From positions 1 through 12,136 of the IMG/VR virus record IMGVR_UViG_2711768053_000017: DNA of 12,136 bases. One strand, written 5' to 3'. Made by a program: the position numbers and the translations under genes. Source of the stretch: a virus (Duplodnaviria > Heunggongvirae > Uroviricota > Caudoviricetes). The notes under the pieces are model-generated. The model was not told the DNA's origin and searched no databases. It saw only the letters and a list, made by a program, of their open reading frames with translations. Each line of letters opens with the position of its first letter. The stretch's first letter is position 1. This document shows positions 2,543 to 11,599 of this stretch, piece after piece.

Positions 2543-3151
2543 ATGAATCACAAAAATAAAGCGCTACTGGAACGACTGGAAACCCTGAAAAACGAAAAAC
2601 CACACCAGAAGCTTTTGCTGGTTTTTCCGGGCAAACCACAGGTTGAAATCAGCATTGACTACCACGAATTACACAGAACGTTCGCTGACCTGATGGCATT
2701 TAAATCAAAGCTTCAGAATGGCGAAGATTTGAAAGATGCCACCCTGCATCCCGACGATGAATACGGCCATTTTTGTCGGGATAACGCAAAGGGAACGTTC
2801 GGATTGGTTTTAGAACCAGTATGCGGCGTCATGCTCAGGTTTCCTGCCGAAGAAGCATTTGAACTTTATCGACAGATTATGGATGACGAATCAATGCTCA
2901 TTAAAGAAACAGCAGACTGTACATGCGCTAACACTAAACCGTACATTTATGCTGGCTCATACACTGATGAAGAACTGATAAATTTTTTGGAAACCGTTGT
3001 AGCAGAATTGAAATGCCGCAACAGGTTACCACTAAGACAACAACAATTACGGCATGAGTTAGAGGCCTACCAGGCTGAAATAGATAGAAACAATGAGTTT
3101 CTTAATTCAGTCGTGTATCGGCAGGATAAAAATCCCAAGCAGAATCCTTAA
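2543..3151 (+). CDS. Hypothetical protein, 202 aa, in AT-rich accessory cassette
   Basis: Long ORF with AAAGAGGT SD about 9 nt upstream of the ATG; no family recognised by eye. Noticeably AT-richer than the flanking phage backbone. Confidence 0.6.
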   Translation: MNHKNKALLERLETLKNEKPHQKLLLVFPGKPQVEISIDYHELHRTFADLMAFKSKLQNGEDLKDATLHPDDEYGHFCRDNAKGTFGLVLEPVCGVMLRFPAEEAFELYRQIMDDESMLIKETADCTCANTKPYIYAGSYTDEELINFLETVVAELKCRNRLPLRQQQLRHELEAYQAEIDRNNEFLNSVVYRQDKNPKQNP

Positions 3152-3569
3152 AGTGCAACAGACTTTCATCTTCATAACTTAAATCAGGCATTGGAGATGA
3201 GAGCTCGTGCTTATAAAGAATCTGGATACGCTCGGATACATGCTCTGGTATTACATATGCATTAATATCATTCCAGAGAACAATAAGTATGTCATGGAGA
3301 CACATATTTTTGGCATCAGACAATGAAACACCCTTTTGGGTGAAAAGATAATGATAAAGCACATTTTTTCCGAAGAGGACTACACACTTGGAATCAATAT
3401 TTCTTCGATACTCGACAAGTAGCAAATCCAATTTAAGGAGAATTAATGCTCGAGTAGCAACAAATGCTGAGTTGGCTGTTTCTTTATCCAGCACATCACG
3501 ATAGGATTCAGCAACTCGCTCGCAGTGTTTTTCAAAAATTCGCAGACACACAAAAGCATCTAATTCCAT
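3102..3569 (-). CDS. Hypothetical protein, 155 aa, convergent with and overlapping the 3' end of the 2543-3151 gene by 50 bp
   Basis: AAGGAG SD 6 nt upstream of the ATG at 3569 (MELDAFVCLRIFEKHCERV...). The ORF-track extension to 3722 is a Cys-rich low-complexity stretch without an SD, so the shorter start is preferred. No recognisable motif. Confidence 0.6.
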   Translation of the reverse strand: MELDAFVCLRIFEKHCERVAESYRDVLDKETANSAFVATRALILLKLDLLLVEYRRNIDSKCVVLFGKNVLYHYLFTQKGVSLSDAKNMCLHDILIVLWNDINAYVIPEHVSERIQILYKHELSSPMPDLSYEDESLLHFKDSAWDFYPADTRLN

Positions 3570-3710
3570 AACAACTCCTTTGTGGTTGGTTAAACACGCG
3601 CCCTTTACAGCCCCTTCAAGACTGCGGGCGGTGGAAAAATACCACAAAACCATGCGCCGGGCATGGCTAAAACCCGGCACAAATTCGCAACAGCAGCAGG
3701 ATATTTTTGT

Positions 3711-4061
3711 ATGAAGCAACAACGAAATTCTTCACAGCAACGCTTCCGCAACGGGGCGGAACGCCACGCTAACCGTTTCGCCACCAGTGCATCACGCAGC
3801 AGCTCTCGCTACAGCCTGAGCGAAACACACGCCACACCTGATGGCCATCCCGTAAAACAAATTGGTGAACACACCTGGCTGATTGAGAAGGCTGGAATCG
3901 TGGTCCACAAATGCCCGCGCAATCCGTTCACCGGAAACCGCATTTTTGAACTGATCAGCGGCGACAATCACCTCGGGCAGGATTTCACATTGTACGAAGC
4001 ACTACGCACGGTTGATCGTCTGCTTCGCGGGCAAAATTTTATTAAACAGACTGATTTATAA
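3711..4061 (+). CDS. Hypothetical protein, about 116 aa (start uncertain; 3663 is the alternative)
   Basis: ORF with a plausible globular C-terminal half (…WLIEKAGIVVHKCPRNPFTGNRIFELISGDNHLGQDFTLYEALRTVDRLL…), but the N-terminal part is S/R-rich and neither candidate ATG has a convincing SD. Confidence 0.4.
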   Translation: MKQQRNSSQQRFRNGAERHANRFATSASRSSSRYSLSETHATPDGHPVKQIGEHTWLIEKAGIVVHKCPRNPFTGNRIFELISGDNHLGQDFTLYEALRTVDRLLRGQNFIKQTDL

Positions 4062-4071
4062 CAGGTGCTTT

Positions 4072-4350
4072 ATGACTAAAGACCATACTCAAGGTGTATT
4101 TATCCGCTTTATTGATTCTCGCGGTGAACTGTTATTGCGTGCATCAGCTATTAATGGTGTAGCCCAGACAAAAGACGCAACCACTCATATTTATTTGGAC
4201 AGCACCGCACAACTGATCGTGGAGCTTCCGTACCAGACTGTACGTGAAGTCATTAGCGAAGCTGAAAAGGCACGTCAGATTAATAGCGATGAACCATACA
4301 TCGAAATTATCTGCATGGATTCAAAAACAGAAATCCAGAAGACAGATTAA
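4072..4350 (+). CDS. Hypothetical small protein, 92 aa
   Basis: ATG at 4072 preceded by AGGTG with a short spacer; it starts 10 nt after the previous stop, consistent with an operon. No family recognised. Confidence 0.5.
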   Translation: MTKDHTQGVFIRFIDSRGELLLRASAINGVAQTKDATTHIYLDSTAQLIVELPYQTVREVISEAEKARQINSDEPYIEIICMDSKTEIQKTD

Positions 4351-4361
4351 AGGGCGTTGTG

Positions 4362-4604
4362 ATGGATAAAGAATATAAAACTCTCGTCAATAAAGCACTT
4401 GAGCGTTTTCATTTTCGCTTAAGCGCATCAGGCACTCATGCTGAGCTCGCAGCCCGAGAGTCATTGACCAGGGCCATCAAGAGTATATACGACACGGCTT
4501 TTTACATTGACGATCCGGACGCACTCGACGAGCTTTCCATACTCGTCTGCGCCGCAGAAAACGGGCATCACATTGAACCGTATAACCTGGGGAGTATCGC
4601 GTGA
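4362..4604 (+). CDS. Hypothetical small protein, 80 aa
   Basis: ATG at 4362 with AAGGG about 7 nt upstream; tightly spaced after the previous gene. No family recognised. Confidence 0.5.
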   Translation: MDKEYKTLVNKALERFHFRLSASGTHAELAARESLTRAIKSIYDTAFYIDDPDALDELSILVCAAENGHHIEPYNLGSIA

Positions 4605-4714
4605 GCATATTTATTTCATGGCTTGTTCTGATTATTTCGGTGGCCTGCGCCATTGGGATTATGCGAATTATTCATTCAGTAAAAAAGATTGAACGCTTTT
4701 TCACTGGTGAATAA
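4601..4714 (+). CDS. Small hydrophobic single-TM peptide, 37 aa, not in the ORF track (below its length cutoff)
   Basis: GTG start at 4601 overlaps the upstream stop (GTGA) and is preceded by GGGGAG 6 nt upstream. Translation (M)SIFISWLVLIISVACAIGIMRIIHSVKKIERFFTGE is one predicted transmembrane helix followed by a basic tail. Confidence 0.4.
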   Translation: MSIFISWLVLIISVACAIGIMRIIHSVKKIERFFTGE

Positions 4715-4807
4715 CAGCACAAATAAAACACCAGATTAAATAAGAAAACGTGAAAACCATCCGTATTAACGGAGGTATTCGCACACGCAAATAACGGAGA
4801 TACAAAA

Positions 4808-5218
4808 ATGCACGCAAAAGAAGAAGGTATCATCAGAGCACTGAAAGAAATTTCAAAGACAGAAAACGAAGTAGCGAAAAAAGCCATAGCAAATAATCAT
4901 ATGGACGTCGCAACCCACACACTGATAGTCGCAAGAGTTACGGCAGAAGCAGCCGAAATTATCGCAAAACAGGATGCTGAACTGGCGGTTCTCAGAACAC
5001 AACCAATCACCGGGCTGGATTTGTCTAACACCGGACGCCTTATTTACACAATTGGCTCGGAGCTACAGCGATACACCATTATCGCCGGATTACAGGATAA
5101 ATACCTGATCACTCCTCACCCCATAAGGGAATCAGAAATTCTGACAAATCTCCGCCTGATAGAGCGCTCTCAAGTCGCATTCATTGATGACGCACAGCGC
5201 ACCGCATTTAACGCATAG
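4808..5218 (+). CDS. Hypothetical protein, 136 aa
   Basis: ATG with ACGGAG SD about 8 nt upstream; clean ORF with ordinary composition; no family recognised. Confidence 0.55.
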   Translation: MHAKEEGIIRALKEISKTENEVAKKAIANNHMDVATHTLIVARVTAEAAEIIAKQDAELAVLRTQPITGLDLSNTGRLIYTIGSELQRYTIIAGLQDKYLITPHPIRESEILTNLRLIERSQVAFIDDAQRTAFNA

Positions 5219-5236
5219 GGTTACTGGACAAAAAAA

Positions 5237-5245
5237 GGGGGGGGG
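5237..5245. repeat. Homopolymeric G9 tract (preceded by A7) 2 nt upstream of the start codon of the 5248 operon
   Basis: Counted directly: A at 5230-5236, G at 5237-5245, then CA and the ATG at 5248. The tract doubles as the only purine-rich SD-like element for this start codon. Confidence 0.9.
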
Positions 5246-5247
5246 CA

Positions 5248-5451
5248 ATGGCAATTAAGCGTTTTTCCGTCATTCGTTTCGCATCCAGAGGGCGTGAATA
5301 CGAAGTTGACGAACGGCTGATTAAAACGCTCGACCGTCACCGTTCGCAACCTGACGCGCATCACATTTATCTCACTGACGACACTTACTTCTGCGCCACC
5401 AACGTGGTGCAGGTGAACCTTATCCGACACGTACAGGAGTCACGCAGATGA
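5248..5451 (+). CDS. Hypothetical small protein, 67 aa; first gene of a translationally coupled four-gene operon
   Basis: ATG directly after the G9 tract; its stop overlaps the next start (ATGA). No family recognised. Confidence 0.5.
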   Translation: MAIKRFSVIRFASRGREYEVDERLIKTLDRHRSQPDAHHIYLTDDTYFCATNVVQVNLIRHVQESRR

Positions 5452-5666
5452 ACAGAAGGAGAATTACACGCAGACATCGCCGTACACGCCTGAGCTCCCC
5501 GCCAACACTAAAGGGACTCATTCAAAGCGAGATCGGTGATTTCTTCGCTGGATTTGGATCACCTGGCGAACCAGAAACACCTGAAGCGATGCAGCGCGAA
5601 CTCATGATGCGCATCGATAACGTTTTTGACTTTTTCCTGAATAACAAAAGAGAGCAACCGACATGA
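5448..5666 (+). CDS. Hypothetical small protein, 72 aa, with a strongly basic N-terminus (MNRRRITRRHRRTR)
   Basis: ATGA overlap with both the upstream and the downstream gene supports real, coupled translation. Confidence 0.5.
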   Translation: MNRRRITRRHRRTRLSSPPTLKGLIQSEIGDFFAGFGSPGEPETPEAMQRELMMRIDNVFDFFLNNKREQPT

Positions 5667-5875
5667 ACGAAAAGACCTGGTTTCGCGCATACATGTGGGC
5701 GCTGGTATGCGTCCTCGTCTCTATCATTCTGTATGCAGGACTACTCCCCCGAATGATCTCATCAGACAGCTCCTTCCTGGTATTGCTGGGCATTTTTGTT
5801 GCCTTGCTGTACCCGGCGGGCGTTGTCCGCTTTTTCAGTAACTACATCAAAGCAATTATGGAAACCAAACAATGA
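5663..5875 (+). CDS. Small integral membrane protein, 70 aa, two predicted TM helices
   Basis: Hydrophobic segments AYMWALVCVLVSIILYAGLL and FLVLLGIFVALLYPAGVV; ATGA overlaps on both sides. It sits immediately upstream of the SPFH gene, like the NfeD-type membrane partners of SPFH proteins. Confidence 0.6.
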   Translation: MNEKTWFRAYMWALVCVLVSIILYAGLLPRMISSDSSFLVLLGIFVALLYPAGVVRFFSNYIKAIMETKQ

Positions 5876-6696
5876 AAAAACTATTACCACTCATCCCTCT
5901 CCTGATGACCACACTTCTGGTTGGCTGTGACCGCGTGGAGCCGGGCAATGTAGGCATCAAAGTCAACAAACTGGGCGACGATAAAGGCGTCGGTGAAGTG
6001 GTTGGCGTTGGTCGCTACTGGACAGGCTGGAATACCGAGGTTTACATCTTCCCGACCTTCAAACAAATGAAGACCTACGATGAGCCGTTCAGCTTTCAGA
6101 TGAGTGACGGCACAACCATCGGCTATCACATCGGTGTAGCCTACAAGGTTGATCCATCCAAAGTTACTACAGTGTTTCAGACCTACCGCAAAGGCGTGGA
6201 CGACATTACCGACACTGACCTGCGCCAGAAGATCGCCGATGCACTCAACCGACTGGCCAGCAAAATGACCACCGATAAGTTTATCGACGGTGGTAAGTCT
6301 GAACTGCTGGATTCAGCACTTAAAGACATTCAGGCAGAAATGACACCTATCGGCATTCAGGTAATGAGCCTCTCTTATGTCGGTAAACCGGAATACCCGC
6401 CAACCGTGATCGACAGCATTAATGCCAAAGTCACAGCGAACCAGAAAACCCTGCAACGCGAACAGGAAGTCAAGCAACGCGAAGCAGAAGCCAACATGCT
6501 GCGCGCAGAAGCTGCCGGACAGGCTGATGCCATTCGCACAAAAGCCCAGGCTGAAGCCGACGCCATTCGTTTACGCGGTGAAGCTCTGCGCCAGAATCCC
6601 GGCGTTATGGAGCTGGAAGCAATCAACAAATGGAACGGCACGCTGCCGCAATACATGACCAGCAATACCGCTGTTCCGTTTGTTCCGGTGAAGTAA
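5872..6696 (+). CDS. SPFH/band-7 (HflC/stomatin/prohibitin-like) lipoprotein, 274 aa, predicted inner-membrane anchored
   Basis: N-terminal signal peptide with lipobox LLVGC followed by Asp at +2 (inner-membrane retention signal). The C-terminal Ala/Glu-rich coiled-coil (LRAEAAGQADAIRTKAQAEADAIRLRGEALRQNP...LEAINKW) resembles the HflC/HflK C-terminal region. ATGA-coupled to the upstream membrane protein. Confidence 0.65.
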   Translation: MKKLLPLIPLLMTTLLVGCDRVEPGNVGIKVNKLGDDKGVGEVVGVGRYWTGWNTEVYIFPTFKQMKTYDEPFSFQMSDGTTIGYHIGVAYKVDPSKVTTVFQTYRKGVDDITDTDLRQKIADALNRLASKMTTDKFIDGGKSELLDSALKDIQAEMTPIGIQVMSLSYVGKPEYPPTVIDSINAKVTANQKTLQREQEVKQREAEANMLRAEAAGQADAIRTKAQAEADAIRLRGEALRQNPGVMELEAINKWNGTLPQYMTSNTAVPFVPVK

Positions 6697-6702
6697 TTAA
6701 AC

Positions 6703-6748
6703 CCGGCCAGCGAAAATCGCTGGCCGGAGCAGTATCAGGATTTTTTTT
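6703..6748 (+). terminator. Candidate rho-independent terminator after the SPFH operon
   Basis: Perfect 10-bp stem CCGGCCAGCG / CGCTGGCCGG with a 5-nt loop (6703-6727), starting 7 nt after the stop codon, followed by a T8 run at 6741-6748. The T-run is 13 nt from the stem, which is non-canonical. Confidence 0.4.
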
Positions 6749-6775
6749 AGTATGCCGTTCTCACAAAAAAACCGC

Positions 6776-6886
6776 TTGCCATGCCGCAATCAGTCAGGTT
6801 ACATTTCCGCTGCACCTCATAAAACGGGTGCCGGGATTTCCACCCCGCTGACAACCAAAGCGCACAACCGCGCCAGCGGTTTTTTT
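6776..6886 (+). promoter_or_regulatory. Candidate promoter plus hairpin/T7 element: possible short transcript (about 75 nt) or attenuator-type leader
   Basis: TTGCCA (6776-6781), 18-nt spacer, TACATT (6800-6805); downstream a stem CCGCTG (6845-6850) / CAGCGG (6874-6879) enclosing an inner GCGC-N6-GCGC hairpin, followed directly by T7 (6880-6886). Confidence 0.25.
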
Positions 6887-7065
6887 GTGCGTACCGTATC
6901 GCCACGTCTTTTTCGCACACGAATTATGGTGGGGCGTATGGGGCCGACTTCGGTCGGGCCGGGTTCTTTGGTTGCCGGTTGTGGAAACCCTGTACGTCTC
7001 ACCACCCCGAGTTTTCCACCTCTGGATGGTGAGTTTTCAAAACTTACAACCAAAGAGGCCACACC

Positions 7066-7296
7066 ATGGCAAACCGCAAACAGCACCGCGCTATCGCGGA
7101 GCGTCGTCACATCCAGACTGAAATCGACCGCAGACTCACCCGCGCTGCACACATCGCCTTTATCATGCAATCCAACACATTGCACAGACTCAACAGCACT
7201 ATTTCAGCCGACTACTGCGCCGCTGTATTCAGCTATCTGGCGGAAGACCTCCTGTCTCTTCAGGACCTTATCCAGCAGCAAAACAAACTCCATTAA
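7066..7296 (+). CDS. Hypothetical small protein, 76 aa, basic N-terminus (MANRKQHRAIAERRHIQTEIDRR)
   Basis: AAAGAGG SD 7 nt upstream of the ATG; the sequence reads as a genuine protein, unlike the overlapping 206-aa ORF at 6752-7372. Confidence 0.55.
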   Translation: MANRKQHRAIAERRHIQTEIDRRLTRAAHIAFIMQSNTLHRLNSTISADYCAAVFSYLAEDLLSLQDLIQQQNKLH

Positions 7297-7368
7297 TTCC
7301 TGTTCCGGGCCTTTCCTGCACCTTGCGGCGGGAGGCCTTCGCACATCTGTAACAAGAGGATTGCCGCA

Positions 7369-7734
7369 ATGATTCTCGCCAACGACTTTCTTGAATACCT
7401 GCTCAATACAGAGCGTGATCTTGCCGTTCGCGTGCGTGACCGTTATGACATGTACCTGAAATCCCTGCCTGTACCGCAGCTCGCTGACGGAAAGATTGTT
7501 ATTGATGGTCGCTACATGATCGACAGCCATGAGGGAAATTACAGGCTTTACCGCATTGAAGGTGGCACCCCGTCCGTTATTGGCATTTACCAGCGCCCAT
7601 CCTCTGCAATCGTCGATGTGATTGCCGACAGCATCCGCATCACACATCGCCATGCCGACACAGAAGACACCGTGCTGGAAATTCAGCGTCTGGCTGCCGT
7701 TTGCCGTGACACCCTGAACGGTATGACGAAGTAA
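7369..7734 (+). CDS. Hypothetical protein, 121 aa, immediately upstream of gene A
   Basis: AAGAGGA SD 8 nt upstream of the ATG; its stop is 6 nt before the gene A start. No family recognised. Confidence 0.6.
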   Translation: MILANDFLEYLLNTERDLAVRVRDRYDMYLKSLPVPQLADGKIVIDGRYMIDSHEGNYRLYRIEGGTPSVIGIYQRPSSAIVDVIADSIRITHRHADTEDTVLEIQRLAAVCRDTLNGMTK

Positions 7735-7740
7735 ATCAGT

Positions 7741-10563
7741 ATGACGACAGAGTACATCAGGGACTGGCAACAACCACGCCACGCAGTAGGGCGTGAAGGT
7801 ACGGGGATCCCCGCACCTGAATCCGCGCTTTCCTCCTGGCTGGATGCCTACCGGGTAGAGAACGAGCGCCGCCAGGAAATGGCTGATGCGGCGTTCTCCG
7901 CCACGCCGCTGGGCAACCTGATTAATAAAAGCCTGGACGCACAGGAAAAACAGGACAAAACCATCACACTGGCAGGAGACGCCAGAAAACAGGCACGCGG
8001 CGCGCTGGATGAAGCCATGGCCTCGCTGCGCCTGCTGCCGTCCTATCTGCGCGATCCGCTTATTCGCCACCTCTCCTTCCTGCGCAAAAAACAGGAAGCC
8101 GATCGCCGGAAAGGCAAAAAGAGCTGGCAGGCGGAACGCTATGCACGCGGAACCCTGCGCAAAATATTCGAACGTCTGGATCGCACTGACGGACGCTGGC
8201 TGACACCGGGTTATCGCTCCCTTGCCGGACGCGAACGCCTGGACGATTTGCTGTACCTGCCGCAGCTCAACAAACACCAGATACAGACACTGGCCACCAT
8301 GACGGCGGCAATGTTCAGCAGCACCTTCGAGACACTCTGCGATGGCTTTGGCGCGACCGATGGTGAGCTGACCATGGAAGTGGCGCTGAAGACGTATCAG
8401 ATGCTGGCCCGAATGGCGTTACACCTGCACGCCATTCCGCCACATTATGACGCACTGACAACAGATAAAGACCGGAGGAACGAACCGGACACGGAGCTGC
8501 TGCCGGGCGCAATCCTTCGCCTGACCTGTGCGGAATGGTGGAAACGCAAACTGTGGCTGTTACGTTGCGAGTGGAGAGAAGAACAACTCCGCGCCGCCTG
8601 TCTGGTTTCCAGAAAAACATCACCCTATCTGAGCCAGGACGCGTTAAGCGAGTTTCGCGCACAGCGCGAGAAAACACGCGATTTTCTGAAAAGTTTCATG
8701 CTGGAAAACGAAGACGGGTTCACGATTGATCTCGAGACAGTGTATTACGCGGGAGTAAGTAACCCGGTTCACCGTAAGGCAGAAATGATGGCCACCATGA
8801 AGGGGCTGGAACTTCTGGCCGAAGCCCGTGGCGACAAAGCGGTGTTTCTGACTGTCACTACCCCTTCGAAGTACCACGCAACAACGGAGAACGGTCATCC
8901 GAACCCCAAATGGAACGGGGCCACCATGCGCGATTCCAGCGATTACCTGGTTAACACGTTTTTTAAGGCGGTCCGCAAAAAACTGAACCGCGACGGCCTG
9001 CGCTGGTATGGCATTCGCACGGTGGAGCCTCACCATGACGGCACCGTGCACTGGCACATGATGGTCTTTGCACATCCTGAAGAAATCGACAGCATCGTGG
9101 ACATCACCCGTGATATTGCCATTCGCGAAGACCGCCACGAGCTGGGCGATGACATAACTCCGCGTTTTAAGGCAGAGTACGTCGACGGTTCGAAAGGTAC
9201 GCCGACCAGCTACATCGCCACCTACATCGGAAAGAACCTGGACAGCCGCGCCGTGGATGGCATTGACCCGAAAACAGGCAAACCGCGCATCGACGACGAA
9301 TCAGGAAAGACGATGGCAGAAAGCGTGGAACGCGCCATCGGCTGGGCGCGCCTTCACCGGGTCCGCCAGTTCCAGTTCTTTGGCATCCCCTCCCGTCAGG
9401 TGTGGCGTGAACTGCGCCGCCTTGCCTGTCAGATGGCACGTAACCCACAGGGACCGCAACGTCTGGAAAATGACGCAATGGATGCGGTTCTTGCTGCCGC
9501 TGATGCCGGATGTTTTGCCACCTACATAGAGAAACAGGGCGGCGTGCTTGTTCCACGCAAAGACTACCTGATTCGCACCGCCTACGACCTCGCAGATGAG
9601 CTGAACGATTACGGCGAACAGAGCGTACAGATTTACGGGATCTGGTCACCACTCATCGGGGAATCCTCCCGTGTGTGCACGCATCCGGATAACTGGAAGC
9701 TGGTAAGACGCAAACCGGAAGCGGAAGACAGCGCCCGCGAAAATGGTTTTGACCTTCAGGGCGGCCCTGCCGCCCCTTGGACTCGTGGCAATAACTGTCC
9801 CCGTGTACAGGAAACGGACAACAACGGGACAGAACAGCCGGAAGAACGGCCAGCACCGTGGCCGCAGCTTCCTGACGGCGTTGATGTGGATGAATGGATG
9901 CGCTCACTGAAACGGCACGAACGCCGGGCGCTGATGCGTTCGCTTCGTGACAAACAGGCAAAAAACATCAGTGATGAAATGCAGAACTGGACACAGAGCC
10001 GCAAACAGCCACAGCCTTTGCCTGATAACCACGAGTTACTCGCTAAAGAATGGCGGGAGTCTGCTGAATCTCTCGGCCTGCATATCGGTGAACAGCAGAT
10101 GCAGCACCTGTTACGGGGCGGCAGTCTGTACGTTGACGGCAGCATCATTGCACCGCAGGGATTTGAAATTGTACGCAAACCGGATACCCGCCCGGACAGC
10201 CGAATCACGCAGCTCTGGCAACGCCTGAGCCGTAACCACGGCGTAAGCAGCACGGAGATCCGCCATAACCCGGTCGCCAGCTATCTGGAACAACTAGGGG
10301 CATCAGACCCCGAAGCCGCCGCACGCCTGGCATCCACACTTCAGCAGGACCAGAACACCATGAAAACCCCCGTTACCGTGCTTTCTGACATGCTGCGCGC
10401 CATCCGCGACGCAGAGCACGCACAGAGAATCAGTGAAACCACTGAACGCGCCCACCGCAAAGCAGACCTGCTGCGGGGTAGCCTGACCAGTGGAAACAAA
10501 AAACAGACAGAAACGGGATTCACAAATCCCGTAAATGAGCAAAAAACGTGCCATAAAACATGA
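7741..10563 (+). CDS. A: Rolling-circle replication initiator, P2 gpA family (HUH endonuclease), 940 aa
   Basis: HUH motif VEPHHDGTVHWHMMVF (H-W-H at 9049-9057) and twin catalytic tyrosines YIATYIGKN (Y codons at 9211 and 9223), as in P2 gpA (VEPHHDGTPHWHMM, YIAKYISKN). The start at 7741 has a weak SD and may be coupled to the upstream gene. Confidence 0.9.
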   Translation: MTTEYIRDWQQPRHAVGREGTGIPAPESALSSWLDAYRVENERRQEMADAAFSATPLGNLINKSLDAQEKQDKTITLAGDARKQARGALDEAMASLRLLPSYLRDPLIRHLSFLRKKQEADRRKGKKSWQAERYARGTLRKIFERLDRTDGRWLTPGYRSLAGRERLDDLLYLPQLNKHQIQTLATMTAAMFSSTFETLCDGFGATDGELTMEVALKTYQMLARMALHLHAIPPHYDALTTDKDRRNEPDTELLPGAILRLTCAEWWKRKLWLLRCEWREEQLRAACLVSRKTSPYLSQDALSEFRAQREKTRDFLKSFMLENEDGFTIDLETVYYAGVSNPVHRKAEMMATMKGLELLAEARGDKAVFLTVTTPSKYHATTENGHPNPKWNGATMRDSSDYLVNTFFKAVRKKLNRDGLRWYGIRTVEPHHDGTVHWHMMVFAHPEEIDSIVDITRDIAIREDRHELGDDITPRFKAEYVDGSKGTPTSYIATYIGKNLDSRAVDGIDPKTGKPRIDDESGKTMAESVERAIGWARLHRVRQFQFFGIPSRQVWRELRRLACQMARNPQGPQRLENDAMDAVLAAADAGCFATYIEKQGGVLVPRKDYLIRTAYDLADELNDYGEQSVQIYGIWSPLIGESSRVCTHPDNWKLVRRKPEAEDSARENGFDLQGGPAAPWTRGNNCPRVQETDNNGTEQPEERPAPWPQLPDGVDVDEWMRSLKRHERRALMRSLRDKQAKNISDEMQNWTQSRKQPQPLPDNHELLAKEWRESAESLGLHIGEQQMQHLLRGGSLYVDGSIIAPQGFEIVRKPDTRPDSRITQLWQRLSRNHGVSSTEIRHNPVASYLEQLGASDPEAAARLASTLQQDQNTMKTPVTVLSDMLRAIRDAEHAQRISETTERAHRKADLLRGSLTSGNKKQTETGFTNPVNEQKTCHKT
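10513..10532. promoter_or_regulatory. 20-bp palindrome ACGGGATT-CACA-AATCCCGT, copy 1, inside the last codons of gene A
   Basis: Perfect 8-bp inverted arms seen directly in the sequence; an identical-arm second copy lies 73 bp downstream. Confidence 0.5.
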
Positions 10564-10639: not shown

Positions 10640-11599
10640 ATGAAAATTTGTATCGACGACGGCTCCACCAACATAAAGCTGGCATGGACTGAGAACGGCA
10701 AACGCCGCAACGCCATCAGCCCGAACAGCTTCAAGTCGGAATGGTCTGCGCCGTTCGGTGGCACGCAGCCCGCGAACTACATGCTTGATGGCGTGCGCTA
10801 TGGTTTTGATCCGGTCAGCGATCGCTTTGTCCAGACGACCGACACGCAATACCAGTACAGCGATGTGAATGTCATTGCCATTCATCATGCGCTGGTCAAA
10901 TCAGGCATCACGCCACAGGAGGTGGATGTGGTTGTCACCCTGCCACTGAGCGAGTATTTCGACACAAACGCACAGCCGGACATGGCCAACATCAACCGCA
11001 AAAAAGCGAACGTTATGCGCCCGGTGGAGTACCAGAACGGCGAGGCATTCACTATCCGTAACGTGCGGGTTATGCCTGAATCCATTCCGGCTGGCTTTAA
11101 AGCACTGGCTGACATGAGTCCGTTTGAATCCCTGCTGATTGTGGATTTGGGCGGAACCACGCTGGATGTGGCAAAGGTTCAGGGGCAACTGGCAGGTATC
11201 AGCCAGGTGTTTTGCGATCCACACGTAGGCGTTTCTCTGATGGCTGATGCCGTGCTGTCGGTGATGGCCACTAACGGTATGCGTACCAGTCACCACATCG
11301 CCAATACCATTATTGAGCACCGTCACGATGAAGCCTGGCTACGCCAGCACATTCACAATGACGCGCATTACAACAGCCTGATGGCGGTTATTCGTGAAAA
11401 GGAGGAGACACTGAAACAACGCGTGATCCGCGCGCTGGCGGGTTTTTCGGGTTACGGGCGGGTGATGGTTGTAGGTGGAGGAGCGGAGATTGTGGCACCC
11501 GCTATCCGCGAAGCCTGCGGAGTTAATGCGACTTTCATCGCGGACGGGGTGCCACAGTTTGCTCTGGTTAATGGGCTGTACGCAATGGATAAGGAGTAA
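10640..11599 (+). CDS. parM: ParM/StbA-family actin-like ATPase, 319 aa
   Basis: N-terminus MKICIDDGSTNIKLAW matches the ParM signature (R1 ParM MLVFIDDGSTNIKLQW). Further shared blocks: SPNSFK, YSDVNV..HHAL, TLPLSEYFD, NRKKAN, VMPESIPAGF, LLIVDLGGTTLDV, GVSL, VGGGAE, LVNGLY. Length matches ParM (about 320 aa). AAGGAAAAG SD upstream. Confidence 0.85.
   Translation: MKICIDDGSTNIKLAWTENGKRRNAISPNSFKSEWSAPFGGTQPANYMLDGVRYGFDPVSDRFVQTTDTQYQYSDVNVIAIHHALVKSGITPQEVDVVVTLPLSEYFDTNAQPDMANINRKKANVMRPVEYQNGEAFTIRNVRVMPESIPAGFKALADMSPFESLLIVDLGGTTLDVAKVQGQLAGISQVFCDPHVGVSLMADAVLSVMATNGMRTSHHIANTIIEHRHDEAWLRQHIHNDAHYNSLMAVIREKEETLKQRVIRALAGFSGYGRVMVVGGGAEIVAPAIREACGVNATFIADGVPQFALVNGLYAMDKE

Follow-up and report, generated by a model that had tools for sequence, protein, structure and literature searches.

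The tract of seven A and nine G residues preceding the start codon of a 67-aa early phage gene reads, by its position and its homology, as the ribosome-binding site of that gene, composed of an A-rich leader and an over-long Shine-Dalgarno (SD) element. With a probability of about 0.65, we regard the tract as a mutation-driven, slippage-prone ribosome-binding site in which changes of length have at most a modest graded effect on expression, or none. The window, which is the whole stretch of 12,136 nucleotides analysed here, covers the early region of an E. coli prophage, P2-like and of the P88 type (genus Xuanwuvirus). The tract and its surroundings consist of the following elements.

5219-5247, + strand: intergenic gap of 29 nt that holds the tract
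5230-5236, + strand: A7 run, the 5' half of the tract, in the A-rich leader directly 5' of the SD element
5237-5245, + strand: G9 run, the putative expanded SD element, at the same site as GGAGG in L046, P88 and L015 and as GGGGG in most relatives
5246-5250, + strand: CA spacer (5246-5247; CGCA or TGCA in relatives) and ATG start codon (5248-5250)

Read directly from the window, positions 5220-5259 are gttactggac AAAAAAA GGGGGGGGG ca ATG gca att aag, which confirms the original prediction in placing an A7-G9 run directly 5' of the start codon at 5248. The tract spans positions -18 to -3 relative to the ATG and is the sole purine-rich, SD-like element of the 29-nt gap, again as had been claimed for the first of the four ORFs that follow. 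The gap measures 23 nt in the common form of the locus and 27-33 nt in the relatives with long tracts.

The earlier statement that G runs of this length are uncommon was likewise upheld. For G9, the expectation is 0.04 runs per window, and 8 of 200 dinucleotide shuffles contained one, while A7 runs are unremarkable in the window (five found, 4.9 expected). All G/C runs of at least 8 in 251 kb of related loci and the window are found at the tract locus. The single G7 in this set is an interrupted allele (L034) of the same locus and the longest G/C run elsewhere is 6. Runs of 8 G:C base pairs are outliers in E. coli, where the indel rate depends on homopolymer length (PMC8510543), and G/C runs are depleted and mutate more readily than A/T runs (PMC1378130); it is on these two sources and our own 251-kb sample that the rarity of G runs of at least 9 in E. 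coli is based.

The relatives of the region were gathered from complete E. coli genomes, phage records, IMG/VR and metagenome contigs, and contigs encoding exactly the proteins of the window. They share the alignment frame GGAC-[tract]-ATGGCAATTAAG. The commonest form, GGAC-AAAGGGGG-CGCA-ATG (A3G5-CGCA), occurs in about 90% of the E. coli carriers. When the ranking of 426 E. coli genomes was sampled evenly from top to bottom, 49 of the 54 full-length matches were 255 nt long, which is the length of this form. A3G5-CGCA was also found in most IMG/VR and metagenome loci, and the homologues P0001, P0003 and P0009 have G5-type spacings only. A recognisable SD sequence occupies the homologous position in other relatives, where L046, which has the same upstream gene as the window, reads GGAC-AAAGGAGG-TGCA-ATG, and P88 and L015, which have a different upstream gene, read AAGGAGG-CGCA-ATG. 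The tract is best understood as an expanded SD site because the relatives carry AAAGGAGG or AAAGGGGG at the same place. Another relative (L054) has A3G5-TGCA. Outside the clade of the window, both short-run alleles (A3G4, A3G6 in several loci, A4G5 and A3G7) and long-run alleles (A3G11 in L017 and A3G13 in MINF_1A) were observed.

The clade of the window differs from these forms in having the spacer CA instead of CGCA and an A run of 6-8 residues, compared to A3 in most relatives. The following alleles were found with this spacer.

A7G7-CA: two Logan assemblies
A8G8-CA: strains 639 and 455
A6G9-CA: AH21B060
A7G9-CA: the window and its identical contig in GCA_001268445.1
A8G9-CA: 2022S01-140 and its derivative -18
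A7G11-CA: GCA_017018715.1
A8G12-CA: HNSQ2209, and 2020N21-110 with its derivatives -15 and -24
A7-G-A-G7-CA (interrupted): ETEC1732, whose flanks are only 86% identical to the window

About 3% of the carriers have long tracts, with intact ORFs in all of the long-tract alleles, and a pattern scan of GTDB genomes for the tract gave nothing but a chance match, in Legionella. Across different upstream contexts, the start codon is conserved together with the first 20 nt of the 67-aa ORF. For some genomes and for phage P88, homology to the window starts at 5239-5247, which places a mosaic boundary at the tract. In L015, P88 (L038) and H85-H90, the same CGCA-ATGGCAATTAAG start follows upstream genes that differ, and this suggests recombination at or beside the ribosome-binding site.

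These forms trace, step by step, a route by which a normal ribosome-binding site can become a slippage-prone run, from GGAGG through G5 to G7 or longer. A canonical AAAGGAGG site probably became G5 by one A-to-G change, and in a few lineages G5 then grew to at least 7 G. A C-to-G change in G(n)CGCA would fuse the run with the next G and add two G at once. Past about 7 G, replication slippage would outpace the point mutations of the flanks, so that nearly each lineage would carry its own length. Slippage alone does not readily account for an A run that lengthened from 3 to 6-8 residues.

The genes of the window that bear on the tract are listed below. All of them lie on the + strand downstream of the early promoter region, with the exception of the integrase/repressor pair and one inserted ORF.

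543-1574, - strand: integrase
after the integrase: repressor, Cox and DUF4761
4359-4604, + strand: DUF4754
4808-5218, + strand: 136-aa early gene (phrog_9338), with its TAG stop (5216-5218) 5' of the tract
5248-5451, + strand: 67-aa gene, a full-length match to phrog_3459, with the tract as its probable ribosome-binding site
5448-5666, + strand: 72-aa ORF, matching the C-terminal two thirds of phrog_4144
5663-5875, + strand: 70-aa membrane protein (phrog_1130, 'moron' category)
5872-6696, + strand: 274-aa SPFH/Band-7 lipoprotein (PF01145, phrog_200)
after the SPFH gene: isrK-like and C4 RNAs, then a 121-aa gene
7741-10563, + strand: replication endonuclease gpA, then ParM

The four ORFs from 5248-5451 to 5872-6696 are connected by 4-nt overlaps with the preceding stop (ATGA), and the overlaps implied by the coupling that had been proposed for them were thus observed across 5248-6696. 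The description of these ORFs as an SPFH operon holds in part. The 67-aa ORF does head the four coupled ORFs, but these sit inside the P2-like early operon and the label is too narrow, as a simple consensus scan of the + strand from 4300 to 5250 gave no sigma-70-like site and the phrog_3459 gene is found without the SPFH gene in Citrobacter phage Shae_phiSM. In phage P88 and most of the E. coli carriers, the 67-aa gene is followed by a MarR gene.

The 67-aa protein belongs to a narrow family centred on Escherichia in which all members are annotated as hypothetical. It has no sequence match in Pfam, NCBIfam or the PDB. Its AlphaFold model, which is confident (pLDDT 88.7), is a small all-beta SH3-like barrel, for which a Foldseek search of the PDB gave nothing below E = 0.09; the resemblance of the model to Sac7d, Tudor and SH3-like folds is weak and serves only as a lead. 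The 72-aa ORF is annotated by PGAP as a partial pseudogene in the relatives. Against NCBIfam, the SPFH protein shows similarity to HflK/C only, at a sub-threshold level.

The position of the tract offers the anti-SD sequence a choice of pairing registers. The G run ends 2 nt 5' of the ATG, registers with a spacing of 2-6 nt are available, and CCUCC can pair with each stretch of five G in the run if one G·U pair is included; pairing of the tract with ACCUCCUUA has a computed duplex energy of about -11 kcal/mol. Throughout the clade of the window, a constant 2 nt separate the 3' end of the run from the ATG. The original prediction had held that a change in tract length would alter the SD-to-start spacing, and this part did not stand, since with the 3' edge fixed and the anti-SD sequence able to pair anywhere in the run, a length change would alter the set of pairing registers and not the position of a fixed SD.

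Initiation was modelled from the duplex energy with ACCUCCUUA, a published form of the spacing penalty and the unfolding of positions -35 to +35. The relative initiation with the CA spacer was 4.2 for G7, 6.9 for G8, 5.8 for G9, 3.1 for G10, 2.9 for G11 and 1.6 for G12, compared to 0.9 for A3G5CGCA, all values coming from our own simplified thermodynamic script, which is uncalibrated and ignores effects specific to poly-G. One nucleotide more or less around G9 therefore alters the modelled initiation less than 2-fold, and the span from G8 to G12 about 4-fold. When 150 nt of upstream sequence are folded along, positions -12 to -1 become gradually more paired, with a mean probability of 0.55 at G7 and of 0.83 at G12, and the longer runs are predicted to pair increasingly with C/U-rich segments inside the upstream ORF, i.e., in translated RNA. 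Length changes would thus have at most a graded, few-fold effect on translation of the 67-aa gene, passed on to the three genes behind it through the ATGA coupling. The toggling of the whole operon that had been suggested finds no counterpart in these modelled values, and an on/off switch is not expected from them. We infer a small effect on expression, with the tract as at best a weak expression dial for which slight tuning or none is more likely, in terms of the model, than on/off control.

RNA structure at the tract was also considered. The local fold of 5205-5290 is no more stable than that of shuffled sequence (z = -0.52), and no terminator-like site, inverted repeats or other repeats were found at the tract. 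An intrinsic terminator or structured leader was rejected on these grounds. Rfam gave no RNA family at the tract, and the only matches, isrK and C4, lie about 1.6 kb 3' of it. A homopolymer switch in a promoter spacer, of the Neisseria porA/opc type, was likewise rejected given the position of the tract at -18 to -3 and the lack, in the simple consensus scan, of a sigma-70-like site on the + strand from 4300 to 5250.

Among runs of at least 7 G, the lengths G7, G8, G9, G11, G12 and G13 were found, together with A runs of A6, A7 and A8. In an alignment of about 2 kb of flanking sequence, no substitutions separate 2022S01-140 (G9), strains 639 and 455 (both G8) and 2020N21-110 (G12), while HNSQ2209 (G12) differs by one SNP and AH21B060 (A6G9) by two, so that five alleles lie within at most two SNPs. 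The claim that the run is prone to length change is borne out by these differences, and the tract length is not uniform across related strains and prophages. The length of the tract thus appears to change faster than 2 kb of its flanks gains one point mutation. The short forms (G4-G6) vary little, whereas forms of at least G7 differ in almost every lineage. Such a threshold resembles that expected of replication slippage with an indel rate dependent on run length (PMC8510543), and we infer slippage as the cause of the length changes. Consensus assemblies of parent and derivative genomes have the same length; clonal laboratory derivatives keep their length, and switching is therefore too slow to show at the assembly level.

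Single-base deletions were also observed in two of the relatives. In L036 (E. coli BEC1-S17-ESBL-09) the 67-aa ORF has lost one base (AATTAAG to AATAAG) and in L033 (MINF_1A) the 72-aa ORF has lost one (GCGAAC to GCGAC). Either could be a real inactivating mutation or an assembly indel. The G13 count of MINF_1A is less certain because of this nearby deletion.

Long homopolymers are error-prone on nanopore and other sequencing platforms, and the polymorphism might accordingly reflect one true length that was miscalled to different extents, a reading to which the additional 1-nt indel near the tract in MINF_1A lends some weight. We give it little probability. The assemblies of clonal material agree internally (A8G12 in all three of 2020N21-110, -15 and -24, A8G9 in both 2022S01-140 and -18, A8G8 in both 639 and 455), yet these groups differ from each other by up to 4 nt in the tract despite identical 2-kb flanks. 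The three 2020N21-110 assemblies are independent builds, as their total lengths differ by 1-10 nt elsewhere, and random assembly noise does not account for the differences, given this agreement within clones. G7, G9 and G11 were also read from draft assemblies of other origin, and the 6-nt range of lengths exceeds the typical error of one nucleotide. The artefact that had been offered as an equal alternative is therefore unlikely for the polymorphism as a whole, although a given assembly may miscount the run by one. Over 6.2 kb, CXXT01000024.1 (GCA_001268445.1) matches the window at 100% identity and likewise has A7G9; as this contig is probably where the window comes from, the match does not count as an independent confirmation of the G9 length. 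A programmed ribosomal frameshift or transcriptional slippage site, fusing two frames across the tract, has hardly any chance of being correct. The sequence A AAA AAG G does resemble known slippery heptamers, runs of at least 8 A can cause RNA polymerase slippage, and an ATG at 5187 is in frame with the 67-aa ORF in one third of the tract lengths, for which extended products are sometimes called (P0008). The upstream ORF, however, stops at TAG 5216-5218, 5' of the tract, and TAA 5209-5211 lies in the frame of the 67-aa ORF; no frame is open across the tract from a translated gene, no SD-like sequence precedes the ATG at 5187, and the tract is only A3G5 in most relatives. Frameshifting or fusion was hence rejected on the two stops and on the location of the slippery run outside any translated ORF.

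Two readings in which tract length matters to the phage have to be set against mutation as the driving force. Selection for a strong ribosome-binding site would make the A-rich leader and long SD a means of higher translation, with the variability in length as a side effect. The model does predict about 6-fold more initiation for A7-8/G8-9-CA than for A3G5CGCA, mainly through less structure in the leader, and A/U-rich leaders enhance initiation via ribosomal protein S1. This support, however, comes from the same crude initiation model, which returns G11-G13 to the level of G5, and with only about 3% of the carriers having long tracts we hold selection of this kind to be unlikely. The alternative is an adaptive contingency locus, in which slipped-strand changes reversibly switch or strongly tune the first gene and the coupled SPFH membrane cassette and give heritable heterogeneity among lysogens or progeny. 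The tract has several of the expected attributes. Its length is above the usual mutability threshold for G/C runs of about 7-8 or more (G9 in the window, G7-G13 in the clade), near-identical prophages differ in length (G8, G9 and G12 with no SNPs in 2 kb), more than one tract type gave rise to long tracts, and the four ORFs are coupled by ATGA overlaps; that expansion recurred, in at least two tract types (CGCA and CA), could point to selection for long tracts. Precedents are the upstream G(n) tract of uspA1, with its graded control (PMC7302503), and the hypermutable polyG tracts reported from Campylobacter phages (Sorensen 2021, cited in PMC10877375). On the other side, with the 3' edge of the run fixed against the ATG and the anti-SD free to slide, only a few-fold change was modelled, clonal derivatives have the same tract length, and the stable G5 form is kept by about 90% of the carriers. 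The genes are part of a P2-type early operon with no promoter of their own detected and so may not be expressed in lysogens at all, and PADLOC found no defence-system signature in the cassette. A contingency locus is consequently improbable in our judgement, and selection for switching appears to be absent. Its most specific version, a phage-borne element in which A(n)G(m) slippage sets reversible levels of the SH3-like protein and the membrane/SPFH cassette and adds an 87-88-aa isoform from ATG 5187 in one third of the lengths, is quite unlikely. If correct, such an element would diversify the behaviour of lysogens or phage progeny and would count among the rare SSR-type switches of E. coli, and as the first inside the SD site of a temperate phage.

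The frame that begins at ATG 5187, inside the end of the 136-aa gene, runs through the tract for 23 codons in the window (5187-5258). It fuses with the 67-aa ORF when the tract totals 11, 14, 17, 20 or 23 nt, as in the alleles G11-CA, G13-CGCA and G4-CGCA, to give a product of about 85-89 aa that reads ...GQKKGGGA-MAIKRF. We regard this extension as an annotation hazard and not as biology, and inconsistent start calls in annotations are likely to result from the 5187 frame.

A literature search on the tract, on P88-like early genes and on SPFH proteins in P2-like phages gave nothing specific. The slippage-prone ribosome-binding site favoured here can nevertheless be compared to several known systems. 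It shares with canonical SD sites and coupling in phage early operons the position, the purine content, the anti-SD complementarity, the homology to GGAGG and the ATGA overlaps, and differs from them in its extension to 7-13 G, in the A6-8 before it and in its distance of only 2 nt from the ATG. In SSR contingency loci of Neisseria, Haemophilus, Campylobacter and Bordetella, as in the present locus, a G run of at least 8 lies at the 5' end of a gene and varies in length among near-identical strains in a manner that fits slipped-strand mispairing. The tracts of those loci, however, are found inside ORFs, where they switch frames, or in promoter spacers, and have been shown to switch at high rates and to produce ON/OFF phenotypes, whereas the present tract would be the SD itself, with a predicted effect that is graded and small and with no within-clone switching seen in the assemblies. 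E. coli is mismatch-repair proficient and generally avoids such repeats (PMC3315296).

The closest mechanistic analogue is the G(n) tract upstream of uspA1 in Moraxella catarrhalis, which changes the mRNA about 20-21-fold between G10 and G12 (PMC7302503), and large effects of G tracts in 5' leaders therefore do occur; the effect of the present tract may accordingly be larger than modelled. Both tracts are poly-G upstream of an ORF, with an effect that is graded in uspA1 and predicted to be graded here, and the G length that counts as 'high' in uspA1 depends on an adjacent A residue, similar to the A/G boundary of the present tract. The uspA1 tract, on the other hand, acts on the mRNA level and lies further upstream of the ATG, and its effect and its selection in biofilms were measured, while the present tract abuts the start codon and its effect is a modelled one. 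The closest phage analogue is found in the coding-region polyG tracts of Campylobacter phages. Those of Fletchervirus are likewise phage-borne, hypermutable and variable in length, but they are reported to lie within the coding sequence for receptor-binding proteins, in virulent phages, and to switch the host range (Sorensen et al. 2021, Cell Rep 35:109214, cited in PMC10877375). The tract described here lies outside coding sequence, as a ribosome-binding site among the early genes of a temperate P2-like phage.

Polymorphic intergenic mononucleotide repeats of E. coli have reportedly been used for strain typing (Gur-Arie 2000 and Diamant 2004) and are said to be mostly A/T runs of at most 9 nt. 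They resemble the tract as non-coding homopolymers with strain-to-strain differences in length without demonstrated function, and the G runs of 9-13 described here are longer and rarer. Repeat-based hypervariable loci are generally regarded as scarce in E. coli. In this setting, the G7-G13 tract is documented as a site that seems to mutate faster than the 2 kb around it, and it may serve as a marker of recent divergence among P88-like prophages. It also serves as a warning for annotation and assembly pipelines, as start and frame calls shift with tract length. Control of expression by the tract, if it occurred, would give a handle on the function of the widespread phage SPFH lipoprotein cassette.

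Several further observations concern the genes around the tract. The SPFH gene (5872-6696) has 87-92% nucleotide identity with genes of Stx2-converting phages, phiP27 and P1-like phage-plasmids, where it is labelled 'serine protease', 'lipoprotein' or 'SPFH', and this distribution marks it as a widely exchanged accessory gene. At 5448-5451, about 375 bp present in most relatives are missing from the lineage of the window, with the junction at the ATGA overlap. The relatives have at this place a MarR-family gene and a 40-aa ORF, or an intact Ead/Ea22-like gene (P88, i.e., L038 at 3331-3887, and L045-L054). Directly 3' of the SPFH stop, a strong 12-bp GC-rich hairpin (6702-6748) is followed 12 nt further by a T8 run on the + strand; the hairpin was scored as a terminator on the - strand and may mark the end of the accessory cassette.

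Beyond this hairpin, Rfam matches at the gathering level were found for the Hfq-binding sRNA isrK (6812-6886, 64 bits) and for the C4 antisense RNA (6922-7009, 80 bits). A sigma-70-like site at 6776-6805 precedes them, and genes annotated as 'ash family' or 'derepression protein' follow in the relatives. The region is a C4-antirepressor-type module in the style of P1/P7 within the P2-like early region, and the 206-aa ORF at 6752-7372 is probably a spurious read across the two RNAs. On the - strand, an ORF of 155-206 aa (3102-3722) is inserted in the + strand early operon between a 202-aa ORF (2543-3151) and DUF4761, and was also called by gene callers in the related contigs L040 and L041. Finally, gpA is followed by a ParM-like segregation ATPase and a small partition protein (10640-11599 and 3' of it), as in P88-like phages, and in L001 a DUF3800 gene comes next on the opposite strand.
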